Virus record (IMG/VR): IMGVR_UViG_3300020158_000335
Location: 11,155-75,154 of that record
DNA length: 64,000 nt
Strand: one strand, 5' to 3'
Source: a virus
Shown: positions 1 through 13,092 of the stretch, one piece after another
How the letters are laid out: every line of letters starts with the position of its first letter
Numbering within the stretch: position 1 is the stretch's first letter
The notes under the pieces: model-generated
The model's database searches: none
What the model was told of the DNA's origin: nothing
Seen by the model: only the letters and a program-made list of their open reading frames with translations
Position numbers and translations under genes: made by a program

Positions 1-2972
1 TTATTAAATTCTTCTCTCGTCATGTCCCACGGCTGCTTATCTGCCACAGATGGTGCGCTTGTACCAGAGGCGTCCGGGGCTTGATCGTTGTTGGCCATTT
101 TATTGAATTCAGGATAGTCTTCCAAAACATGTTTTGCTACTGGAAGCCCTTTTGATATTGCGTCAAGAACTGCGTAGTAGTGTTGCGTATGTTCTGTCAT
201 GGGTGATTCTTTTACGATCATGCCATTATGCCCAGCATCTTCAAAAAAACGGAACATGTCCTCAGAAACAACATCGGGATCGCCACATCTATCAGTAAAC
301 GTTTTCCACTGTTTTGTTGTGACAAGACCTTCTCGGTATTTCTTCTCTGTATTTTGGGAGAGTAACCGCTTTAGTGCCGCCCATTGTTTTTCGCGTAAAG
401 TGTTTTTTGCGGTACGTTTTCGGGATATTGAGATATAGGTATCCCTGCTCATCTGCCACGGCTGCTTATTGGCCACGGATGGAGCCGATTCCATAACCAG
501 ATCATCGTCGTCATCCTCATCGTATTCACCTTCATCACCATCTTCAAAAATCCCTTTCTGCTTGTTCGCCGGATCAAGTTCAGCCGCCCGAGCAATAGCG
601 CCCTTTATGACTTCCGAAGCGGTCGGTGCTGGTTCTTTTCCAAACAGCCCGACTTGATTCTGATACTGCAGAAAGGTTAAAATGCGTTCGCCCGCCAGCT
701 TGAAAACCGTTCCAAGATGTTTTGACCGTCTGATGTTATCGTTTAAAATCCGGGTGATGTCCTTTGTTTCTTCTGGTATCTGTGAGAACAGCCCCATTTG
801 TGAAAGAATCATTTCAATTCCGTCCCCATCGTCTCGGGCCTGAACCATAAGGCGTGTGGCTTCAATGATATTGTCCACAAGATTGATACCGCCCATATCC
901 GGATAGCTGGCCCTGATTTTGGCGAACACGGGAGCTGCTGCGGTTAATGCAGTCAGGATGTTCTTGACGGCTGGATGCGTCTCTTCCGCCATCAAAGTTA
1001 AAAGCCTGTCATCAGCATAAGCTTTGCTGAAAATGGCGCACTGAATTCGATCTACAAGCGCTTTTGTTGGACGGCTGTCCGCCGTAAGCAGCCCAGCCGC
1101 CTCAGCTTTGCCCACTTTTTCAATAAACTTGGCGATAAATCCCGCATTACTGGCAGCCGCGATGTCCCCGTCTTTGGATGGTGTAAATCTTTCCATATCC
1201 GCAGCGGTTAGCCTGCTGTCATCAACCTTGGCCTGTTCCATCGGACTCATGGAGGCGATATCCGCCTCGTTTGCCCGCTCTGTAATTGATCTGCGATCTC
1301 CACCGGAAAGACGGATCCGGACAAGCACCGGCTGCTGGATTTCCGCCAGTTTTTCCGGATTAAACCCAAACTTACCGGCATTCTGAATAATCCATGCTTT
1401 GTATTCGGTCGCGCCGTCTTTGTTGTACCGTTGCCTGATAGCCATTGTCCGGCCGTTCCCGGATTCAACGGCTAAATCCCTGCCAACGATAGGCGATCCG
1501 ACAGATGCGTAAAGAGAATCGCCCAGGCGGTCTGGATTGAGAGTGTTTGAAATTGTTGGAATCTGCCCCTTCATGGTATCCCGTGTCCGGTCCCGTGGTT
1601 GAAGCTCGGCAGGGAATTCCGGGTTCGGCGTAAAATCAGCGTTATGGGAAGCGACAAGGTTTTTTGCTTCGACTACTGCATATTGCAGTACCAGCATATC
1701 ATTATCACTCAGGTAAGCGCGATCACGCTTGCCTGTGATTACTTTAGCGTTGACTTTTCCGCCGTTTCTGGTAATATTTTCAACATCAAAAGGAGGATTA
1801 CTTATGCTATCTCGTAATTTTGAATTTATGGAAAATGAGTTTGTTCCGTATGCCATCGAACGATCAGGCGGTAGGGTGTTCCGCATGTGTGGAAGGTCAA
1901 TGGCAAAATGGAAAGAGATTGAGGATTCCGACAAGGCTTTCAGGATTACCTCAAATGCCTTCTCTGTCTCAGAGTCATCTGCTATAGCACTGGCTGATGA
2001 GTTTGAAGAAGACATCCGTGAAGCCGCCGCCCGATAAACCTTGGTGCTGACCTTGTTTAGGCGAGAGATAAACCCGTCCGCCAGGATAGATACTTCTCCT
2101 AATTCTTCTTGGCTCGCAATCGGTTTTAATTGCCTGATTACGTTGTAAATTTCATGCCCAAGCCCGTTCTCTTTTGCATCAATAATTGGGGCGGTGTTCA
2201 TCTGCAATTCGCAGATGTGCCCGCCGATCATGACTTTCATTATGATACCGGGATAGCCTTCTTTAGTCGGATTTTCGAACCCATTCTTAATCCAGAATAC
2301 AGCAGGGTCTTTTGATATTAAACTGGAAGCCATAGCAACTTGCGATGTGGTGTCGAATACCAATGTCGCAGCTACGACGTCCAAAAGCTTTGACTCGTCT
2401 CCCTCGTAATCATTCTCGATTTTTTCAGCCGCACGTTCTTTCCCTTTTAACCCAGGTCGCAATATCACTTTGGCGCCTGTTTTCGCTCCGAAAGCCTCTA
2501 CCCATTCCTTAAATGCAGGAAGCGCAATCTCAGCCGCAGCGTACACGTCTTCAATGGTCTTAACGCCTTGCTGTTTCAGAGATTTTTTGATTTCAACCAC
2601 CACATCAGTTTCACCTAAATCCTTGAGCGCCTGAAGTGTGGTGTTCCCATCCAGCACCTTAAACTTCCCGTTGCCCATATCAATCACCCGAATAGGCGCA
2701 CGTTTCTCACCTGTTCCGGACTTGGCCGCCGCCATAGACTCATGAGCGCGTTTCACCCGTTCCGGGTCCGCCGCTTCACTGGGAACCAGTTGATCAATGG
2801 AAATGGTTACGCTGTTGAACGTGTCTTTGAAAAACGGAGAGTTACTCGGAGGCATCGTTTCAGAGAAAACATGACGAAAGACGTTTGAAATATCGTCAAT
2901 GTCCTGTGCGGCGGCAAGCTCAGCTCGCCAGTCGGGATTACCTGGAAGGGATTCAAAAAATGCTGATAGCAT
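1..2972 (-). CDS. Large DdrB-like polyvalent protein (partial, >990 aa): ParB-like domain, RelA/SpoT-like nucleotidyltransferase domain, DdrB-ParB domain
   Basis: ATG at 2972; frame stays open off the left edge, so it is absent from the ORF track. Manual translation gives APIRVIDMGNGKFKVLDGN, LKGKERAAEKIENDY..LLDVV..GY..CELQMNT..HEIYN and LQPRDRTR..GSPIVGRDLAVESGNGR. Confidence 0.85.
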   Translation of the reverse strand, partial: MLSAFFESLPGNPDWRAELAAAQDIDDISNVFRHVFSETMPPSNSPFFKDTFNSVTISIDQLVPSEAADPERVKRAHESMAAAKSGTGEKRAPIRVIDMGNGKFKVLDGNTTLQALKDLGETDVVVEIKKSLKQQGVKTIEDVYAAAEIALPAFKEWVEAFGAKTGAKVILRPGLKGKERAAEKIENDYEGDESKLLDVVAATLVFDTTSQVAMASSLISKDPAVFWIKNGFENPTKEGYPGIIMKVMIGGHICELQMNTAPIIDAKENGLGHEIYNVIRQLKPIASQEELGEVSILADGFISRLNKVSTKVYRAAASRMSSSNSSASAIADDSETEKAFEVILKALSESSISFHFAIDLPHMRNTLPPDRSMAYGTNSFSINSKLRDSISNPPFDVENITRNGGKVNAKVITGKRDRAYLSDNDMLVLQYAVVEAKNLVASHNADFTPNPEFPAELQPRDRTRDTMKGQIPTISNTLNPDRLGDSLYASVGSPIVGRDLAVESGNGRTMAIRQRYNKDGATEYKAWIIQNAGKFGFNPEKLAEIQQPVLVRIRLSGGDRRSITERANEADIASMSPMEQAKVDDSRLTAADMERFTPSKDGDIAAASNAGFIAKFIEKVGKAEAAGLLTADSRPTKALVDRIQCAIFSKAYADDRLLTLMAEETHPAVKNILTALTAAAPVFAKIRASYPDMGGINLVDNIIEATRLMVQARDDGDGIEMILSQMGLFSQIPEETKDITRILNDNIRRSKHLGTVFKLAGERILTFLQYQNQVGLFGKEPAPTASEVIKGAIARAAELDPANKQKGIFEDGDEGEYDEDDDDDLVMESAPSVANKQPWQMSRDTYISISRKRTAKNTLREKQWAALKRLLSQNTEKKYREGLVTTKQWKTFTDRCGDPDVVSEDMFRFFEDAGHNGMIVKESPMTEHTQHYYAVLDAISKGLPVAKHVLEDYPEFNKMANNDQAPDASGTSAPSVADKQPWDMTREEFN
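1750..1777 (+). promoter_or_regulatory. Antisense sigma70-type promoter nested in a coding linker
   Basis: TTGACT (1750-1755), 16 bp, TAATAT (1772-1777) with extended-10 TG; AGGAGG at 1791-1796. Confidence 0.7.
1804..2037 (+). CDS. Nested antisense 77-aa protein, candidate antitoxin of the RelA/SpoT-like domain
   Basis: Promoter, AAAGGAGG RBS 7 nt before ATG 1804; the overlapping sense frame is a Ser-rich unstructured-looking linker. Confidence 0.65.
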   Translation: MLSRNFEFMENEFVPYAIERSGGRVFRMCGRSMAKWKEIEDSDKAFRITSNAFSVSESSAIALADEFEEDIREAAAR

Positions 2973-3055
2973 GTTAATTAGCCTTTGGATTGTTGGTTTG
3001 AGATTATATCAAACAGGATTACATTCAAACGGCGGGGATGGCAAATAGGTGATGT

Positions 3056-3073
3056 GCAGATAGGGGTATATAG
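3056..3073 (-). promoter_or_regulatory. Candidate late-promoter motif copy 1
   Basis: gcagataggggtatatag; similar copies at 20943, 34536 and 44360, all upstream of minus-strand virion genes. Confidence 0.45.
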
Positions 3074-3137
3074 AGATTTTCTGGCGAAGGATACAAGGTT
3101 GACTGTTTTTCGGATTTCAAGTAAAGTCTTTTTTATA

Positions 3138-3725
3138 ATGATTGATAATTTCCAAAAACAAAGACTGCATGAAAAATTGTTTGAGTCGCAATGCTCTATC
3201 GTGACACATCAGGCGTATCTTGCCAGAATTGACAGTGTACTGAGAACCATAGAGATTCTTGCGATATGCGCTCCTATAGGATTCATGTCTGTCCAATTGT
3301 CTTTGATTAGCAATGTGGCAATCACAAAAATACTTTCGATTATAAACCCGATTCTATCAGCGGCATTACTTATACTCGCTGTTTTTTCCCTTACCCAAAG
3401 TTACAGACAACGGCTGCAAGATCATCAGAAGTTTCTCGTTGAAAACTTTCCGATAGCCGAACAACTCAGGGCTCTCCTTATCAAAACAGAAGCTGATGAC
3501 AGAGATGTTGAAAAAATCATGGATAAAATAACAGCTTTGGACAAGGAAGAGGCACGATTGATGGCGCACCAGAAAGCCGATGAAAAACAAACATTTTACA
3601 GGGAAGCGATGAAGCGCATGGGAGATATAGATGTGAAATGCCCGAAATGCGGGAAATCTCCGTGGGAGTATCAGAAATCGAAAAACAAGTGTCAGGTCTG
3701 CGGTAGTGAACTACCCCTACCCTAA
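3138..3725 (+). CDS. 2-TM protein with C-terminal CxxC..CxxC ribbon (mobilome CxxC-CxxC / SLATT-like)
   Basis: Two hydrophobic helices; CPKC-x13-CQVC; TTGACT-17-TAAAGT at 3099-3127 favours ATG 3138 over TTG 2985. Confidence 0.65.
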   Translation: MIDNFQKQRLHEKLFESQCSIVTHQAYLARIDSVLRTIEILAICAPIGFMSVQLSLISNVAITKILSIINPILSAALLILAVFSLTQSYRQRLQDHQKFLVENFPIAEQLRALLIKTEADDRDVEKIMDKITALDKEEARLMAHQKADEKQTFYREAMKRMGDIDVKCPKCGKSPWEYQKSKNKCQVCGSELPLP

Positions 3726-3740
3726 AGGGATAGGGGCTTT
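3706..3740. repeat. Hairpin resembling an IS200/IS605-family end, or a terminator
   Basis: gtgaactacccctaccctaaagggataggggcttt; no transposase or nuclease nearby. Confidence 0.35.
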
Positions 3741-4034
3741 ACGCCATTCTTATAAAGACCGGGCAAGTACGTTTATAATGGAAGGCTTACAATATGCCGC
3801 TCCCCCGGCAAGCAGATTCGATGCTCTGAGTCCGAAATGCCCAACATGCAGGAGACCATTATGAACGACAGAAGCATATTGAAAGTCATAGCCATTGCGA
3901 TTAGCCTGATCGGATATTACAGCGTAGGCGGATTCGGTTGGTTTTTACTCATCGGGGCTAACGTCCTTCTGCTGTATCAGGATTACAAATTTTCCAGCAG
4001 GAATAATTGATAAAAATATCAAAACAGCAATAGA

Positions 4035-4066
4035 GATTAAGGGTACCCTGTAGAGTACCCTTAATC
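4035..4066. terminator. 12-bp inverted repeat between convergent genes
   Basis: gattaagggtac ... gtacccttaatc. Confidence 0.45.
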
Positions 4067-4263
4067 CACATTTCTTGAGTGGTTATCCTGTTGCAAGGGC
4101 CGCATCACTGAATCGGAAGTTTATTGCCAAAATCCTGTTCTATGGCGAGTTGCTTGATTTTCTTCAGGAGGCTGATTTGGATCATCACCTGAAGACTGAC
4201 TTCATCAACCCAATGCCATGCGTCATTTATGTCCAGTTATCCCCACGCTGTTATCCAAAATTA

Positions 4264-5298
4264 TTATATCCCATTACCACTGTCACTTTCTAAATCAAAA
4301 GGCAATTGCATCGTTTCATTGAATGCAGGATGAACTATGTCAAGATTGTTTTTGAAGTCTCCCCAACGCTTACTAAGTTTCATTATTGTAGTAACCGATA
4401 CAATGAGTTCTTTAAGTTTTGGATGTCCTGTTTCAATTGTAAGTTTTCTATGTAAATGATGTTTTAAGCGCCCCCTTTCATTTTTTTCTGCTTGAGCTTT
4501 CAACTCCTTCCACACCCCAGGGGCAAGCCGACGATAAACAATATCATTGGTTAAATGTCCGAAATACAAAGGCCGTTTTACGCCATTGCTTGGGAATGGC
4601 AAACTACGCAACCGAAACATTTGTTCATAAAAATCAGAAGGGAACGTTTTAACCCAAGGCTGAAGCTCTTTGGCGACGAAAGACTCAAGTATTCTTGCCA
4701 ATTCATCACGGGCTCTATCTTTTTGATAACCTGTAGCCTCATCTACCAGTGCAACAATGCCGACGCGCATAAAACCACGCATTAAAATTTCACACTGTTT
4801 TGCAATTATCAAACGTCGAGGAGTAGTCAATAGGCCATTATCTCTGGCTTCAAGCATGGCTTCACAAATATCTGCAAGTATTTCTGCACGGTACCCGCTA
4901 ATATATCTCCCCTCAAAAACGCACTTGATAGGTAAAAAATGGTCCGGCCTCTTATCTTTATAAATCAACTGGTTAGCCCATTTTGCTGACAGAAAACGGT
5001 CCACCCTGGAGCCAGGTTTTGTCCCGCTTGCTGGAGCTTCTTCGTCGACCAATCTGAGTGTTTCTTGCAACCCACGGCCTGACAATAACCGCTCTCCGGT
5101 ATTGGTCACATAACAAGACAGGCTGAATCCACAAAGGTCAATTAAACCTGTATGCGTTATTCGAACCATTGACGCCTTTTCTTTTTTTGCTTTAACCATT
5201 TTTAATGATTGGTCCTTGCGCTGTGCAGGTGTCATCATAGCGTTTTTTACTTTTCCACCTTTTGATCTACCAGTTACATCACAGATTGAATTTGGCAT
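4264..5298 (-). CDS. P63C-domain phage protein
   Basis: ALVDEATGYQKDR..LQPWVKTFPSDFYEQMFRL motif. Confidence 0.85.
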   Translation of the reverse strand: MPNSICDVTGRSKGGKVKNAMMTPAQRKDQSLKMVKAKKEKASMVRITHTGLIDLCGFSLSCYVTNTGERLLSGRGLQETLRLVDEEAPASGTKPGSRVDRFLSAKWANQLIYKDKRPDHFLPIKCVFEGRYISGYRAEILADICEAMLEARDNGLLTTPRRLIIAKQCEILMRGFMRVGIVALVDEATGYQKDRARDELARILESFVAKELQPWVKTFPSDFYEQMFRLRSLPFPSNGVKRPLYFGHLTNDIVYRRLAPGVWKELKAQAEKNERGRLKHHLHRKLTIETGHPKLKELIVSVTTIMKLSKRWGDFKNNLDIVHPAFNETMQLPFDLESDSGNGI

Positions 5299-5457
5299 AT
5301 TGCATTCCTTTTTTATATGTTCAGCATGTTATTACATGCAAAATATAAAAAAGCAAATAAAAAGTTATGCAATTAAGAAAATTGCATAAATCCCCTTGAC
5401 ACCCCAGCAACTCATAGCAAACAGTTGAAAGCTACATAACCTTATCTGCGGAGAAAC

Positions 5458-5494
5458 AAAAAAAAAGCCCCTGTGAACTGAATCACAGGGGCTT
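5458..5494 (-). terminator. Rho-independent terminator of the darA operon
   Basis: aaagcccctgtga-actgaa-tcacaggggcttt stem with an A-run on + (U-run on -). Confidence 0.8.
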
Positions 5495-5522
5495 TCGTAT
5501 GCGGGTATGGGTGTGTTATTGG

Positions 5523-5891
5523 TTAATCGTCTTGATCATCCATCAGGCCAGCGTTTTCTTCAATAAATTGCATCCATGCCTTATCAGGAACAAACCCAAT
5601 AAGTAATTTCACTTCCTGAATCAAGTCAGTCCGGTGGTGCATTGTCTCATTCATTAGCAATATGTGATAAACATCTTGAGGGATCATAAACGGATCATCA
5701 ATGTCAATTGCATGGCCATACATTCCCTGCCCGTGGGTCAAAAAGTACTGCCGGAGAAGATAATATCCGCTGACATAATCAAGAGCAACCTTTCCAGCAG
5801 TATCCCACTGGGTAGGTGCAATGACAAGTTCCACGGTGCCGCCTGGAGTGATAATCTGCCAGTGATAAAATGATTCTGGGTATCGTTTCAA
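5523..5891 (-). CDS. Hypothetical protein abutting the 1458-aa gene
   Basis: 122-aa ORF with TTG start directly after the upstream stop; followed by a terminator. Confidence 0.6.
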   Translation of the reverse strand: MKRYPESFYHWQIITPGGTVELVIAPTQWDTAGKVALDYVSGYYLLRQYFLTHGQGMYGHAIDIDDPFMIPQDVYHILLMNETMHHRTDLIQEVKLLIGFVPDKAWMQFIEENAGLMDDQDD

Positions 5892-8800
5892 TTATGCCGC
5901 CTTTATGTCTGGAAGCCCGTCTGTGACCCAAGACGGGACGTTGGCTATAGCAGCAGGGATACTGTCTTTGTTAATGACGTTGAATTGGCCCCAATCTTTG
6001 AAATCTCTGGTTGCGCCATCCCCCAGTGTTGACTGCTCTAATGCCAGATACAGATATGCAATTTGTAGAACGATCTGCTTCGATTTAGCAGAAAATTGGA
6101 AGAGGTAATGTCCGTATGAATCCCATTCTTTTGAAATAATATAGTAACCATCGGAGTTACTTGTTTTCTTATGTCCGCTCACAGATTGAAAAGTAGCAAA
6201 CGGTTCATAAAAAAGAGGGTTCTTCTTGATCTTCTTATCGAGCATTTTATAAAATGCGTCAATAGGCTTTGAAGCATCGGTAATTGCTTTGGCCAGTTCC
6301 AAATCACCAATGAATTTTTCTTTTTCAGAACCAGACGGAGGGGTAGCCAGTATGCCCAAAATCATTTTAAACATTTCAGGGTCATTTACCACTAATTCGT
6401 GCATTAATTCAGGGGACGAAAACTGCTGGATGCCCATTGAAAAGACTTCTGTTGAGTTATCTGCCCCATAATACTTCCCGACATAAGCGTTGAACAGGTG
6501 GTCTGTGTATGCCACTTCATCATCTTTGTAGTTTTCATTCCCGGTCAGAACAGATAATTTTATCAACCCCTTTGTTTTATCAACTCTACCGTCGAGAAAC
6601 GTATTGGAAACTGATACATACTTTGCGTCATCTTCAACTAAATGCCCCATTTCATGCCATAACGTACTCTTGGTAAACTCAGCCCCGACATGGATAATCT
6701 TTCGACCGACTTCAGCGCAAGCTCTTGGTTGGCCTTTAAACCTTTCCTGGATGTGACATTTACCGAACCGCCCCCCGCTTAACCGGTATAATTCCGCCAT
6801 GTCTTTTCTGATATTGGCCTCGCCATACCCGGCTTTTGTTGTTGTTCCCGATTTGCCTGTTACCGATATTTCAACTGCCAAGTAGTTTATCGCGGATTTG
6901 TCTATCACCTGGTCGCTGACCCATTGGTTGGCCTGCTTTTCGGTAATGGGTGATGATTCAAGCATTTTTTGAATCAATGGGTTATAAGTTTTGGCGAGTG
7001 CATCTGATAGTTCTGTGTTTAGCTGCTGCTTCTTATCGGAAAAAGACTTTTCTTTTGTTTTGTACTCAGATTTAAGATTTTGATATTCATCAGAAGCGAG
7101 AAATTCATCCAGAGCTTCTTGAATAATTTTTAGGTTTTTAGCGTATCTCTCTTGTGTTTCAGCAGCCATTAGAGAGTATGCTTCATGCAGTTTGATCCAT
7201 TCGTCAGTTTTTGCCCGTGTGCCTGATATCCTATTTGCGATGGCGTCCAAATAAGAACCCGCAACTGCCGTCTCTCTTTCTACATCCCCCAGCTTTTTGG
7301 TATATCCTAATCGGTCTTCAAGTGTTGATTTATCTGCTCTATATTTAAGCTCTGCCGCAGACCGTTCTTGTTCAAGGGATAAAAGGTCATTTCGTGCAGC
7401 AGAAACCTTCAGCGCAACCGGTCTAAAGCCAGGGGCCGTTGACCATGCATCTACAATCTCTTCCCCTTTGGCTTTTGCAGCATCAAAGATTTCCTTCCCG
7501 GCTTCCTTCGATAGTTCTGACATCGGCTTAACGTTTTCATATCCTGACACCATCCGAGCCAATGTGCCAGGGGCGATTGTGATGAGCCTGTCTTCTGACA
7601 TCGACTTACGCATTAATTCTGAGATTTCATATCTTTGGATAGCGGTTACTGCCACGTTGTAATCAGAGACCAATAATTCAAGTCGATCTATATGGTCGAA
7701 CACGGTTATAGCGTCTTGTGGCTTGTTTGGCATATCTTCTGACATAATTCCTGACGCCTTGAACGCAAGATAAATATCATCAAATGTGGTTGCAGCCCGG
7801 AGCATATCTTTCCAGTCGCCGCCATCTTCAAGGATTGCGGTCTCCATAACCGGATCATCATCCAGCATATCCTTTGCCATTGCAGGAGCAGGCGCAGCGC
7901 TTTCCAAAATACCGCCCCAGTCCTCCCGCCATGCCGCCAGGTACCAAGTCTTCCTGTCCGGGTCCCATGACACCGTTGCAATCTCACCCTGCCACGATAA
8001 ATCGACTTTCGGTCTGCTGGATGGCCCGTATTTTCGCTTGATATGTCCACGGGTCAACATATCCACAAGCCTCATGCAGAGTTCACGGCCTGACTGTTCG
8101 CTGGGCAGGTTTTTTTTTTCAAAATCCTGCTTGGCGATGATTCGGGCAATGCCGTCACCATCAGCAAAAAGCGGGGCAGTCCCAGTATTCCCCCAAAGGA
8201 GGGCAATCCAGCCGATATCCGGACGGCTGGCACCCTGTATGGTGTTCTTTTGGGTATCCAGCGTGTTTTTCATGGCCCGCTTGGATTGATCCTGGGCGAT
8301 GGTGGGCTTTTGGTTCGGCTGGACGGTGGATTCAAGAATCATGGCTTTGCCTATTGTTATTTCCTGCAAGCCGAGTGTAAAAGTCGCCTTGATTTTTTTG
8401 GGGTACACTGCTGCCATGCCCAGAACAAGTTTCTCGTTGACATCAAGTTCTGCATAAATTCCATATTTAGGCCCAATCATACTTCTGAGTGAAGGTGCGC
8501 CTTTGCCTTCTATTGATAGAGTATATACTCCAGGGGGTAACTTCAGGATTGCTGCTTCAAGTAAAGCCCGTCTGCCATCACCGTACACTGAAAGGTAAAG
8601 TTTGTTTTTCGTATTTAAAATGCTACTCCTGGCAATACGAGACAGAAGTTTACGTACGGTTGTTTCTCCTTCATCTGTCTCGATCTTTTGATCCAGATGG
8701 GCGGAGGATTCAAGAATTGATCCGATTGAAGGATCGAATGTGCCCTGATTCTCTACCGCTTTGATTTGGTTCGGATTAAAAGCTATCCAGACAAGGTGTT

Positions 8801-10606: not shown

Positions 10607-13092
10607 ATCACCTTTTTAGCTTCCTCGTTTAACAAACCGGTTAAATAATCAGCGACGGTATTCAGAAGCCCATCGTATTTCTCCATCAAGCCTGCGGTTT
10701 CCAGTGTTGCGGCTGCCTCATCCAGTATCCTGCCATATCCATCAGTATCCGAATCGTGAGCGCCGGACATCAGGTCATTCAGGGTGGCGATTGCGCTCTT
10801 GACATCCGCATCTTCTGGGGGTATATTATCCCCAAGGTTGCTCTCATTCGAGCGTCTGCTGTCTTCGGGCTGGCCGGGTTCTTCCACGGGGGCAGGAAAC
10901 GAAGGTGATTGGTCAGGATCATCAGCGTGCGCGACACGCAGGAGCAACTTTCTTCCACCTCTCTGCTCATAAGGTGTTTTGCTTTTTGGTTTGGCATCTT
11001 CAAGAAACCATGTTGTAACGCCGTAATATCCTCCGTTATTTTGCAACTCAACTGCTGCGAATTTACCACGTCCATTTCGTTTTACAAGCAACAGCCTCCC
11101 GTTAGGTTGTTCGTAAATTTCAGTGTAATGGCGGGTGATGTCCGAAAGTGCATCTATTTCGTCATTATATCCGTATGCCTTGAATTCCTTGATTCTGTCT
11201 TCTGCAATATGTGACTTACCATAAGCGCCGCCTTCCTCAAGTCGGATAGGTGCGGATGGGAATCTTCCCTCGCTGGCCGTTTCTATATCGGGGCCGATAC
11301 TCCCAAAATCAGAAGTTCCATCAGGCGCGGGAATGAATAGACTTCCAGGGGTTTCGACTTTATCCACTTCCGGCGCAATCTGTTCCGGAGATAAAGATGA
11401 TTGAGCGAGTTCGGGATATTCTGCGATAACCATTGTATCTACAGGTTCCCCTGCGGTTACGGCCCGTTTGACACTCCTGGCATGATTTCCTTCACTGATT
11501 GATATTATTTGAGTCCTGGCCTCAAGTTCCTTCGCTATTGCTTGTGGTATAGCTGCATCGGCGCGAAGCCCCGCGAGTGATTCGCCAGCACGAAGCCCTG
11601 TAATCGCTTGGTTAATAAGGTCGAGCGCTCTTTCCGCTGCTCCGTCTTCTTTCAGCCTGCGTTTGGGGCTTGTCCATAAGCCATAATTAGAAGGTCGGTT
11701 CCTATATTTTCCGTCAGGATATTCGGCTATTATACTCTTTGCGCTTTTAGCTTCCTGTTCAAGCATATAAATCAGATAATATTTTTTCGTCATTTCCCAG
11801 GGTTCCGGTACGTCCGGTTCCGGCATCACAAATTCCGGGACAACCGGCGTGACTTCCGGCGTGACGACTTCCGGGGCAACAGGCGTGACTTCCGGCCTTG
11901 GCGCTTTCCCACTGGTGTACAAATCTTCAACGTATTTATCCCATTGCGCCTGCGTGGCTTCACCTTTTTGAAGTAATTCCCACATTTGACCAGTCCACTC
12001 CTGATCTTGAGACCGAACCCCTGGCACCGCCATTTCCCCTACTTCTCTCAATCTGACAAACTCAAGTCGCTTGACTTCCCTCTCATTGGGGATTTTATCT
12101 TCCTTGATTTTAGCCATTATCCCCTTCAAGTCGTTTATAAACCCGTCCTGTTTCATCATGTCAAATGCTTGCTTATCTATCCCCAGGGAAAGAGCTTCAT
12201 CTTTAAGCGCCTCAAATTCCGAATCCATCGCCGCCTGCTTCGCCGCCGTTTCCGCCGCCATCGCCCGCGCCGCTTCATCCGCCTTGGCCTTCACCTGCAA
12301 TGCCGCAAGCTGGTTTTCCAAATCAGCATTTATACCCTGCTGTTTTTCAATCAAGCCTTGCGTCATGGTAATCTTTGTTTGGGTGATTTCCGCAGCAGAC
12401 TGTTGATCCCTAAGCCCGTTCATCAGAGCGACATTTTCAGTGGACAATTTATCAGCATCCGACTTCAAGGTCACAAGCTGTTCATTTTGAGCCTTCACGT
12501 CTTTTTGTGTCGTCTGAAACCTTGCAGAGTTCTTCACCACAAGCTGAGCTATACGTTTGCCCACCTCTTCCAGCGAAATCTCACCCTCGCCCTCTGGTGA
12601 CACCACAAGCGTAATATCCCGTTTATTCAGCAGCCAGCGGTAAGCAATAATCTCATCATCAGGGCCGATCTTCTTGGCGTCCCCGCTCGGGGAATGAAAC
12701 ACAATCGTAATGGCCTGCCCATCGGAAAACGGAATCTGAGCGGTAACATTTGCAAACAATCCGGTTTTCCGTGGTTTTCCGATAATTGCCTCAGCCGGTG
12801 CGATCCCTTCAGGCAGATGTTTTGCAAACACCCGGGCAAGCGCTCTCATCCTGCTGTCTGTCTGTGAGAATCTCTTGACTGTAACCGCCTCGTAAATCCC
12901 TTCTTCCAGAAACTCGCCGTCATTGTACTCATCGTCCATTTCTGCAAGAGTCGCACATTCCAGAATCAGCCTGTCTGTCTCATGGGTATTGGTCAACGCC
13001 ATATAAGCTCGAACCAACCTGTCGGGACCGAACCCTTTAACGAACAAATCAAGCCCGATTTTGTGCAATTTGCCTTCTGAGTATGGGTTCAT
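10603..13092 (-). CDS. darA: DarA-like virion antirestriction protein with an added C-terminal PBECR-like RNase domain
   Basis: FSDGQAITIVFHSP..RWLLNKRDIT..VVKNSARF N-domain and coiled coil; PIRLEEGGAYGKSHI..YYGVTTWF domain. Confidence 0.8.
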   Translation of the reverse strand: MNPYSEGKLHKIGLDLFVKGFGPDRLVRAYMALTNTHETDRLILECATLAEMDDEYNDGEFLEEGIYEAVTVKRFSQTDSRMRALARVFAKHLPEGIAPAEAIIGKPRKTGLFANVTAQIPFSDGQAITIVFHSPSGDAKKIGPDDEIIAYRWLLNKRDITLVVSPEGEGEISLEEVGKRIAQLVVKNSARFQTTQKDVKAQNEQLVTLKSDADKLSTENVALMNGLRDQQSAAEITQTKITMTQGLIEKQQGINADLENQLAALQVKAKADEAARAMAAETAAKQAAMDSEFEALKDEALSLGIDKQAFDMMKQDGFINDLKGIMAKIKEDKIPNEREVKRLEFVRLREVGEMAVPGVRSQDQEWTGQMWELLQKGEATQAQWDKYVEDLYTSGKAPRPEVTPVAPEVVTPEVTPVVPEFVMPEPDVPEPWEMTKKYYLIYMLEQEAKSAKSIIAEYPDGKYRNRPSNYGLWTSPKRRLKEDGAAERALDLINQAITGLRAGESLAGLRADAAIPQAIAKELEARTQIISISEGNHARSVKRAVTAGEPVDTMVIAEYPELAQSSLSPEQIAPEVDKVETPGSLFIPAPDGTSDFGSIGPDIETASEGRFPSAPIRLEEGGAYGKSHIAEDRIKEFKAYGYNDEIDALSDITRHYTEIYEQPNGRLLLVKRNGRGKFAAVELQNNGGYYGVTTWFLEDAKPKSKTPYEQRGGRKLLLRVAHADDPDQSPSFPAPVEEPGQPEDSRRSNESNLGDNIPPEDADVKSAIATLNDLMSGAHDSDTDGYGRILDEAAATLETAGLMEKYDGLLNTVADYLTGLLNEEAKKVM
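10799..10827 (+). promoter_or_regulatory. Antisense promoter nested after the PBECR-like domain
   Basis: TTGACA (10799-10804), 17 bp, TATATT (10822-10827). Confidence 0.75.
10834..10956 (+). ncRNA. Candidate structured antisense sRNA (~120 nt)
   Basis: Terminal stem aggttgctc (10835-10843)/gagcaactt (10942-10950) at the predicted +1; cUUCGg loop 10863-10868; ctggcc/ggtcag; gcgtg-cgcga-cacgc hairpin; U-rich tail. Confidence 0.55.

Follow-up and report, generated by a model that had tools for sequence, protein, structure and literature searches.

A conserved antisense gene nested in the linker of a phage polyvalent protein is a candidate Tis1-like immunity gene for the adjoining Tas1-like synthetase domain

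The DNA analysed here is a stretch of 64,000 nucleotides, positions 11,155 to 75,154 of the IMG/VR provirus record IMGVR_UViG_3300020158_000335; we call this whole stretch the window. At its left end the minus strand carries part of a large gene whose product, P0001, combines a synthetase domain of the RelA/SpoT type with a DdrB-ParB domain. Between these two domains, and entirely within the minus-strand open reading frame (ORF) 3..2972, the plus strand carries a small ORF that is antisense to P0001 residues 312-390 (Table 1). A first-pass annotation, made from the letters alone, had placed a promoter, the sequence AAAGGAGG, an ATG at 1804 and a stop ending at 2037 within the inter-domain linker, and all of them are in fact present. 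We find that the + strand ORF 1804-2037 is a functional and conserved gene that is probably transcribed. It qualifies as a genuine gene because of its conserved signals, its relatives outside large genes, selection specific to its frame, the confident fold of its product and a discrete RNA.

Table 1. Features of the nested locus, in window coordinates
Feature	Coordinates	Strand	Evidence or remark
Sigma-70-type promoter-like site: -35 TTGACT (1750-1755), 16-nt spacer, TG-extended -10 TAATAT (1772-1777)	1750..1777	+	
Shine-Dalgarno sequence AAAGGAGG	1788..1795	+	8 nt before ATG; antisense of sense CCT CCT TTT (PPF)
77-aa gene, Tis1-like immunity candidate	1804..2037	+	ATG 1804, TAA 2035-2037; nested antisense
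First 990 codons of the 1548-aa polyvalent protein P0001	3..2972	-	Gene continues beyond the left window edge
RelA/SpoT-type (Tas1-like) synthetase domain, aa ~137-318	2019..2564	-	AlphaFold2, Foldseek
Ser-rich sense linker, aa 313-392, probable shadow of the small gene	1797..2036	-	Alignment, wobble counts, pLDDT
DdrB-ParB domain, aa 426-554	1311..1697	-	Pfam PF18763, E 2e-31
Conserved N-terminal extension of DdrB-ParB, aa 393-425	1698..1796	-	Holds the promoter and ribosome-binding site of the small gene
Stretch with RNA contigs from four lake metatranscriptome runs	1792..2293		Strand not given by the contigs

The two frames share their third codon positions, and their first and second positions are swapped. 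With this geometry, conservation of either protein forces conservation of the other, and antisense stops are possible only opposite sense Tyr, His or Gln codons. In fact, when the sense gene was recoded synonymously, the antisense frame stayed open in 15% of recodings of the window sequence and in 49-80% of those of its homologues. An open antisense frame is thus not unusual by itself, and the ORF alone proves nothing; the case for the small gene is made by comparisons, by structure and by RNA. The + strand 3' of the small ORF had no recognisable terminator-like site, and an Rfam scan of window positions 1-6000 returned no match.

The nested arrangement is conserved. The ORF is whole, at 75-77 codons, in seven nested copies (the window, L066, L067, L001, L109, L107a and L110), which represent the four lineages from which nested DNA was analysed and whose large proteins are 52-57% identical to that of the window. 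Stops in the antisense frame of close homologues, by which the first-pass annotation would have given up the gene, are thus not what these copies contain. In a tblastn search three homologous loci had the ORF whole, with 63-65% identity for the small protein and 51-53% for the sense segment. Its start signals are shared as well: in all six nested copies whose upstream sequence was read (L110 was left out) the ATG follows AAAGGAG(G) and the same promoter layout, with TTGAC or TTGAT, 16-17 nt, and then TGgTAATAT, TAAGAT or TAATGT. The sense codons CCT CCT TTT GAT that lie under AAAGGAGG are identical in three of the four lineages, L109 having ACT as the first of them. Across the codons beneath the signals (aa 389-412) synonymous codon identity is 0.64 versus 0.39 elsewhere in the gene (Fisher p 3e-6, from comparisons that are not fully independent pairs).

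Which of the two frames is under selection can be read from the shared third positions whose neighbouring bases are unchanged. Among seven phylogenetically independent pairs, 83 such wobble differences were silent in both frames, 15 were silent in the small frame only, one was silent in the linker only and one in neither. Given the opportunities for each kind (shares of 0.12 for small-only-silent and 0.20 for linker-only-silent changes), the expected share of the former among discordant changes is 0.38, and the observed 15 versus 1 has a binomial p of 5e-6; the comparison of selection in both frames that the first-pass annotation had proposed thus comes out in favour of the small frame. Within the four nested lineages alone the discordant changes number 20 (small-silent) versus 5 (linker-silent). 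Fully silent wobble changes are no more frequent than those that alter the linker alone, which run at their rate or higher, and those that alter only the small protein are depleted 4-20 times. The counts are small, and the independent-pair version is the robust one. Read at the level of sequence, these figures mean that purifying selection acts on the small frame and that the linker residues themselves are not visibly selected. The earlier impression that the sense linker reads like the shadow of an opposite-strand gene is borne out by this and by the model of the large protein, in which most of the linker is predicted to be disordered.

Two other measures were also taken. Overall wobble identity shows no clear increase within the module (0.435 versus 0.39, p 0.17), as expected when third positions are wobble positions in both frames, and at 4-fold sites the identity is 0.52 versus 0.39-0.46. 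A synonymous-recoding score was discounted as evidence: the real antisense product exceeded all 1000 recodings in six nested copies (z 4.4-5.7), but the reciprocal test also scores the linker frame above chance (z 1.9-3.8 in nested copies and 1.3-3.8 in all twelve copies tested), even in most of the copies outside large genes, and shared descent explains both.

The small protein belongs to a family that also lives outside large genes. A phmmer search of 1.84 billion representative proteins gave 24 matches, about 15 of them proteins of 70-109 aa, with the common pattern F.F.EKEDVPFA...G..FRM.GR...W.EI.D.D...I..N...ISE.EA..LA. The module was present in 7 of 401 genomes of one class. Copies outside any large gene were found at L102-L106, L095 and L089, and four of these (L089, L106, L095 and L105) have stops in the linker frame but an unbroken small ORF. 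When the small proteins are placed in a tree, those from within and from outside large genes are interleaved; the nearest relative of the window's protein, at 82% identity, is in fact a copy outside. In the outside copies similarity to the linker frame persists slightly past the ends of the ORF, and for this reason they look like survivors of decayed large genes and not like ancestors. Since selection acts on the small frame and members of the family exist without a large gene around them, these sequence comparisons suggest that the linker is best taken as a read-through over a pre-existing opposite-strand gene, or as a state maintained as such. The first-pass annotation had spoken of an overprinted immunity gene. 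De novo overprinting is probably not what happened here, given a family that also exists outside large genes and a passive linker frame; the immunity half of that proposal is supported by the Tas1/Tis1 matches and an HD_4-type fusion described below, and is unproven.

In six of the nested copies (the window, L066, L067, L001, L109 and L110) the small gene adjoins a synthetase-like domain. One genome, G099, carries on its contig C329 (L103) two family members, at 6021-6281 (+) and 6719-6943 (-), which are convergent, lie about 440 nt apart and encode proteins 47% identical to each other. Genes for TetR-family regulators (L102 6626-7222 and L106 6298-6924) immediately precede, in the same orientation, two of the copies that lie outside large genes. 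The phmmer search also matched repeat proteins of 500-2300 aa (P0124, P0129 and others, with 4-6 matching stretches each). These share a short GRS..W..L.D motif, the repeats of P0129 look FG-GAP/VCBS-like by eye, and we treated the matches as chance, since they are probably fortuitous or compositional.

The locus also yields RNA. Four lake metatranscriptome runs from two studies gave contigs at 1792-2293, 1795-2284, 1797-2191 and 1798-2239. The four left ends fall within 7 nt of each other, 15-21 nt downstream of the -10 box, and the contigs describe a discrete RNA of about 400-500 nt that reaches 150-250 nt beyond the stop of the small gene into the synthetase-coding part. Across the remainder of 1-3000 depth was 0 in runs X11, X14 and X18, and X9 had one further contig there, of 175 nt (2699-2873). 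Sequence words of 1300-2700 were present at 83-97% in DNA runs and at 26-33% in RNA runs. Gaps in the RNA are not read as silence; what we use is the contrast within one 6-kb stretch, together with the common left end. One of the RNA contigs is fused to the Illumina read-2 adapter at 1797, a junction that would point to a + strand RNA with its 5' end at or near 1797 if the library, whose type is not stated, was of the usual dUTP kind.

The large protein that hosts this gene has a recognisable architecture. In a Pfam scan of P0001 DdrB-ParB (PF18763) was the sole family matched. Nine homologues with 54-70% identity span the entire searched region (residues 150-560), and their alignment runs in the order N-terminal motif, ParB-like segment, a domain with D...G/GY/ELQxNT motifs, Ser-rich stretch and DdrB-ParB. 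The ParB-like label is our own reading of the GNGKFKVLDGNTT stretch, where Pfam has no match. In the AlphaFold2 model of residues 137-408 the synthetase domain has a predicted local distance difference test score (pLDDT) of about 90. When this domain was compared with the PDB by Foldseek, the top match was Tas1, a type VI toxin that synthesises (p)ppApp (6ox6_A, E 1.4e-7), followed by other small alarmone synthetases, RelSeq, CapRel and FaRel2, and in all 49 RelA/SpoT-family chains (Tas1 and 48 more) were found at E <= 1e-3. Fold and model thus establish a domain of the RelA/SpoT homologue (RSH) synthetase fold, and the RelA/SpoT-like label of the first-pass annotation stands. By sequence the family is at the edge of detection: the Pfam RelA_SpoT profile (PF04607, cut-off 27 bits) scores 30.7 bits for P0003, 26.0 for P0002 and 24.6 for P0005, and gives no match for P0001 at E <= 0.1. 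P0001 keeps the synthetase motifs D198, G239-Y240, E255 and Q257, and alone among the aligned homologues it has AA for GG (DVVAAT) and G for a nearly invariant D (GYPG), just as the first-pass annotation had cautioned. The PF18763 match, the RSH-fold domain, the length of 1548 aa within a provirus and a neighbouring ORF of 1458 aa mark P0001 as a polyvalent protein. On the strength of the model, the upstream domain is probably a Tas1-like pyrophosphokinase of the RelA/SpoT family, an effector of the toxic small alarmone synthetase (toxSAS) type, its activity and toxicity being what we infer from this kinship.

Further occurrences of the motif found at the N-terminus of the large protein (DW.., DIDDIS.VF..F) lie within these polyvalent proteins and at their C-termini, with repeats at the C-terminus of P0001, at L107 9875-9949 and 10526-10603, and at L109 10317-10403.

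The small protein is predicted to be an ordinary small globular protein, as had been supposed: AlphaFold2, given 24 sequences, returned a mean pLDDT of 93.8 and a predicted template modelling score of 0.80 for a beta-beta-beta-beta-alpha-alpha topology. The sense linker falls below pLDDT 50 at aa 323-331 and 359-407, with one helix between. Among 350,542 PDB chains searched by Foldseek, the top match of the small protein was Tis1, which has 76 residues and confers immunity to Tas1 (6ox6_B, E 0.65, template modelling (TM) score 0.42). An exhaustive VIA-align comparison with 48,161 representative chains again put Tis1 first (62 of 76 residues, root-mean-square deviation 3.3 A), as the sole chain with Z >= 5, at a Z of 5.3, and below a Z of 8 such a match can reflect a common arrangement of elements, so that a shared fold is not safe there. 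Pfam, PHROGs and ESM Atlas held no match to the small protein, and BFVD offered only uncharacterised small phage proteins, at E >= 0.04.

Tas1 and Tis1, the best matches of the upstream domain and of the small protein, are chains A and B of one entry, 6OX6. The modest Tis1 match gains weight because the upstream domain independently selects chain A of that same entry, and because a partner of the immunity type had been proposed before any search. A predicted complex of P0001 residues 137-312 with the small protein scored 0.00, which counts neither for nor against binding. A further hint comes from a distant family member, P0139/P0150, which is 42% identical to the window's small protein over 61 residues (E 2e-4). 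In P0150, a metagenomic protein of 707 aa, the domain resembling the small protein is N-terminal, and the C-terminal part matches phrog_990, 'metal-dependent phosphohydrolase' (E 2e-42), has a weak Pfam match to HD_4 and contains an HD...ED motif. HD_4 is the hydrolase domain of RelA/SpoT-type (alarmone-hydrolase) enzymes. This fusion to an HD_4-like hydrolase suggests a link to alarmone biology.

To explain these results we propose that the small protein is a Tis1-like immunity factor of the adjoining Tas1-like synthetase domain, a reading that is supported, unproven, and to which we give a probability of about 0.6. Against toxic alarmone synthetases that produce (pp)pApp, Tis1 and Tis1-like domains act as inhibitors by occluding the pyrophosphate-acceptor site (PMC11782079). 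By analogy, the small protein would bind the synthetase domain and block its nucleotide-acceptor site, as Tis1 does on Tas1. The small gene would be transcribed from its own sigma-70 promoter, written in the first codons of the DdrB-ParB region, and would be active when the late gene on the minus strand is off, for example in a lysogen. The cell that carries the prophage or assembles the phage would thereby be protected, possibly also against the same effector arriving from related injecting phages, and the antisense RNA may further dampen the large gene, at transcription or at the level of its RNA. Since the linker of the large protein is the reverse reading of the small gene, toxin and antidote could not be separated by recombination. 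More tentatively, and at less than even odds, we envision that the antidote doubles as the linker of the toxin gene, is expressed in lysogeny and, alone with its promoter, survives prophage decay as an orphan, sometimes paired, gene that protects the host from alarmone-synthetase effectors that related phages inject.

Several observations weigh against the immunity proposal. The resemblance to Tis1 is weak (Z 5.3, E 0.65, TM 0.42, 11-14% identity), and a profile of the 24-member family searched against all PDB sequences did not find Tis1 at E <= 10. The synthetase domain of P0001, with its changed motifs, may be inactive. Distant proteins that combine RelA/SpoT and DdrB-ParB domains (P0011, P0013, P0014 and P0019) have unrelated linkers, so the nested state is confined to one subclade. 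The nested copy L107a sits where a DdrB-ParB protein begins, and this protein lacks a synthetase domain; 10 kb away on the same contig is a decayed copy of N-terminal motif, synthetase domain and linker. The first-pass annotation had looked to stand-alone homologues next to RelA/SpoT-like genes, and the stand-alone copies exist, but within 6 kb of those outside large genes no synthetase domain was found. In three genomes with 2-3 copies each (G099, G122 and G138) one query detected no match to the synthetase domain, the genomes being perhaps incomplete. Finally, the contigs give neither the strand nor the level of the RNA, so that we infer both + strand transcription and translation.

Part of this is what one would expect if the gene were real and expressed and its product did something other than neutralise the synthetase domain: it might serve in regulation, act as partner to the ParB-like or DdrB-ParB segment, help the polyvalent protein in assembly or packaging, or exclude superinfection through another target. 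Taken jointly these roles are less likely than immunity, though far from negligible. They would suit a module that travels with the start of DdrB-ParB, which holds its promoter, even in L107a, and the outside copies with no synthetase nearby or, in the three genomes, anywhere detectable; the two copies that follow TetR-family genes and a Tis1 match without sequence support would also be at home here. Yet it would then be a remarkable coincidence that the best PDB matches are both chains of one toxin-immunity entry, and the fusion to an HD_4-like hydrolase points toward alarmone biology. Orphan immunity genes are a known pattern. The synthetase-less copies and the G099 pair resemble such genes in their sequence context, which would account for them, although they fit another role equally well.

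Other explanations deny the protein itself a function. The antisense RNA could be the product, acting on the polyvalent gene in a type I-like manner or by transcriptional interference, with the ORF incidental; a discrete RNA of 400-500 nt that overlaps the sense gene well past the stop and a conserved promoter are what this predicts. We consider it improbable, however, because selection is specific to the amino acids of the small frame, ATG and ribosome-binding site are conserved, the protein fold is predicted with very high confidence, and copies persist where there is no sense gene to regulate; an additional role of the RNA would be compatible with all of this. Even less credible is a non-functional shadow, in which the linker is what selection sees and its few Tyr, His or Gln codons keep the antisense frame open. 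Tight coupling of the frames, by which conservation in one forces the other, the 15-80% of recodings that leave the frame open, and the reciprocal recoding test (confounded by common descent) lend it some colour. But wobble changes spare the small protein and not the linker, the linker frame is broken in four copies whose small ORF is whole, and the start signals of the small gene (promoter, ribosome-binding site, ATG) are kept at synonymous sites, to which the confident fold and the discrete RNA must be added.

The proposed immunity system resembles Tas1-Tis1 in that a toxin domain of RelA/SpoT fold is delivered into another cell and is matched by an immunity protein of about 76 aa with mixed beta/alpha structure. 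It differs in three respects: the small protein has no detectable sequence similarity to Tis1 and a structural Z of only 5.3; the toxin domain forms part of a polyvalent phage protein and is neither a type VI effector nor the toxin of a toxin-antitoxin pair; and the candidate immunity gene is not an operon neighbour, being nested on the opposite strand of the same gene with its own promoter. P0001 is also akin to the large multidomain phage proteins with DdrB-ParB and RelA/SpoT-type domains of Iyer et al. 2017 (PMC5512222). That paper lists both domains as restricted to phage-type polyvalent proteins and suggests alarmone synthesis as a weapon; in a term search of its text the word 'overlapping' did not occur, and among the passages listed none dealt with immunity for these two domains.

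As in the embedded antisense genes proposed for E. coli (bioRxiv 10.1101/2020.11.18.388249) and in viral overprinted genes (PMC8227390), the ORF lies wholly within an opposite-strand gene. The present case reverses the usual picture, since here the family of the small gene also exists outside large genes and its frame is the selected one, and the host segment is passive; it also differs in that the two products are proposed to be functional partners. In type I toxin-antitoxin systems the antitoxin is an antisense RNA. Such systems are alike in that an antisense transcript arises inside or beside the toxin gene, and unlike in that selection, ribosome-binding site, ATG and fold here indicate a protein, with an added RNA effect possible.

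Each component is known by itself: toxins of the RSH type that are paired with Tis1-like immunity, polyvalent proteins that carry RelA/SpoT domains, and antisense genes embedded in other genes. What we have not found reported is the combination, a nested candidate immunity gene that serves as the linker of the presumed toxin gene, is conserved across lineages and survives as orphans. Among the papers listed by a full-text search, none described a protein immunity gene nested on the opposite strand inside the gene of its presumed toxin. To our knowledge, bacteria and phages have few convincing protein genes that are contained entirely in an opposite-strand gene, and such genes are dropped by annotation pipelines. 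The present case is notable for its unusually complete comparative support and for a specific, testable function; in fact, the coinciding third positions make it possible to interrupt the small gene by a stop codon without altering the large protein. If the proposal is true, it would explain the protection of the host by phages that themselves package alarmone-synthetase effectors, and it would represent a way of making toxin and antidote genetically inseparable, because loss of the antidote would cut the toxin gene. It would also provide a source of bacterial orphan immunity genes, a new way in which the weapon of a phage can give rise to a defence gene of the host, and would mean that control of the Tas1-Tis1 type, known from secretion systems and toxin-antitoxin modules, extends to phage proteins that are injected.

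A few further observations concern related and neighbouring DNA. The decayed copy near L107a (L107 17063-18313; genome G019, contig C2) has two in-frame TAG codons in the synthetase domain and a frameshift before the linker. Its opposite-strand small ORF has lost the usual stop (109-144 aa), and P0151, a cluster member, has an NCBI hypothetical-protein accession. Within the window, RNA contigs of run X14 also fall on the + strand ORF 2985-3725, which they cover in part and which encodes 246 aa ending in CxxC...CxxC, and on about 4019-4242; the two may be lysogeny-expressed accessory genes; the nearby minus-strand polyvalent genes have no RNA contigs in that run. At the end of ORF 2985-3725, a stretch of about 50 nt (3705-3756) reaches very high depth in all four runs, with single contigs at a depth of up to 3510. 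This stretch contains the hairpin CCCTACCCT-AAA-GGGATAGGG and is joined to many different flanks, as if it were a short element common to many replicons or organisms.

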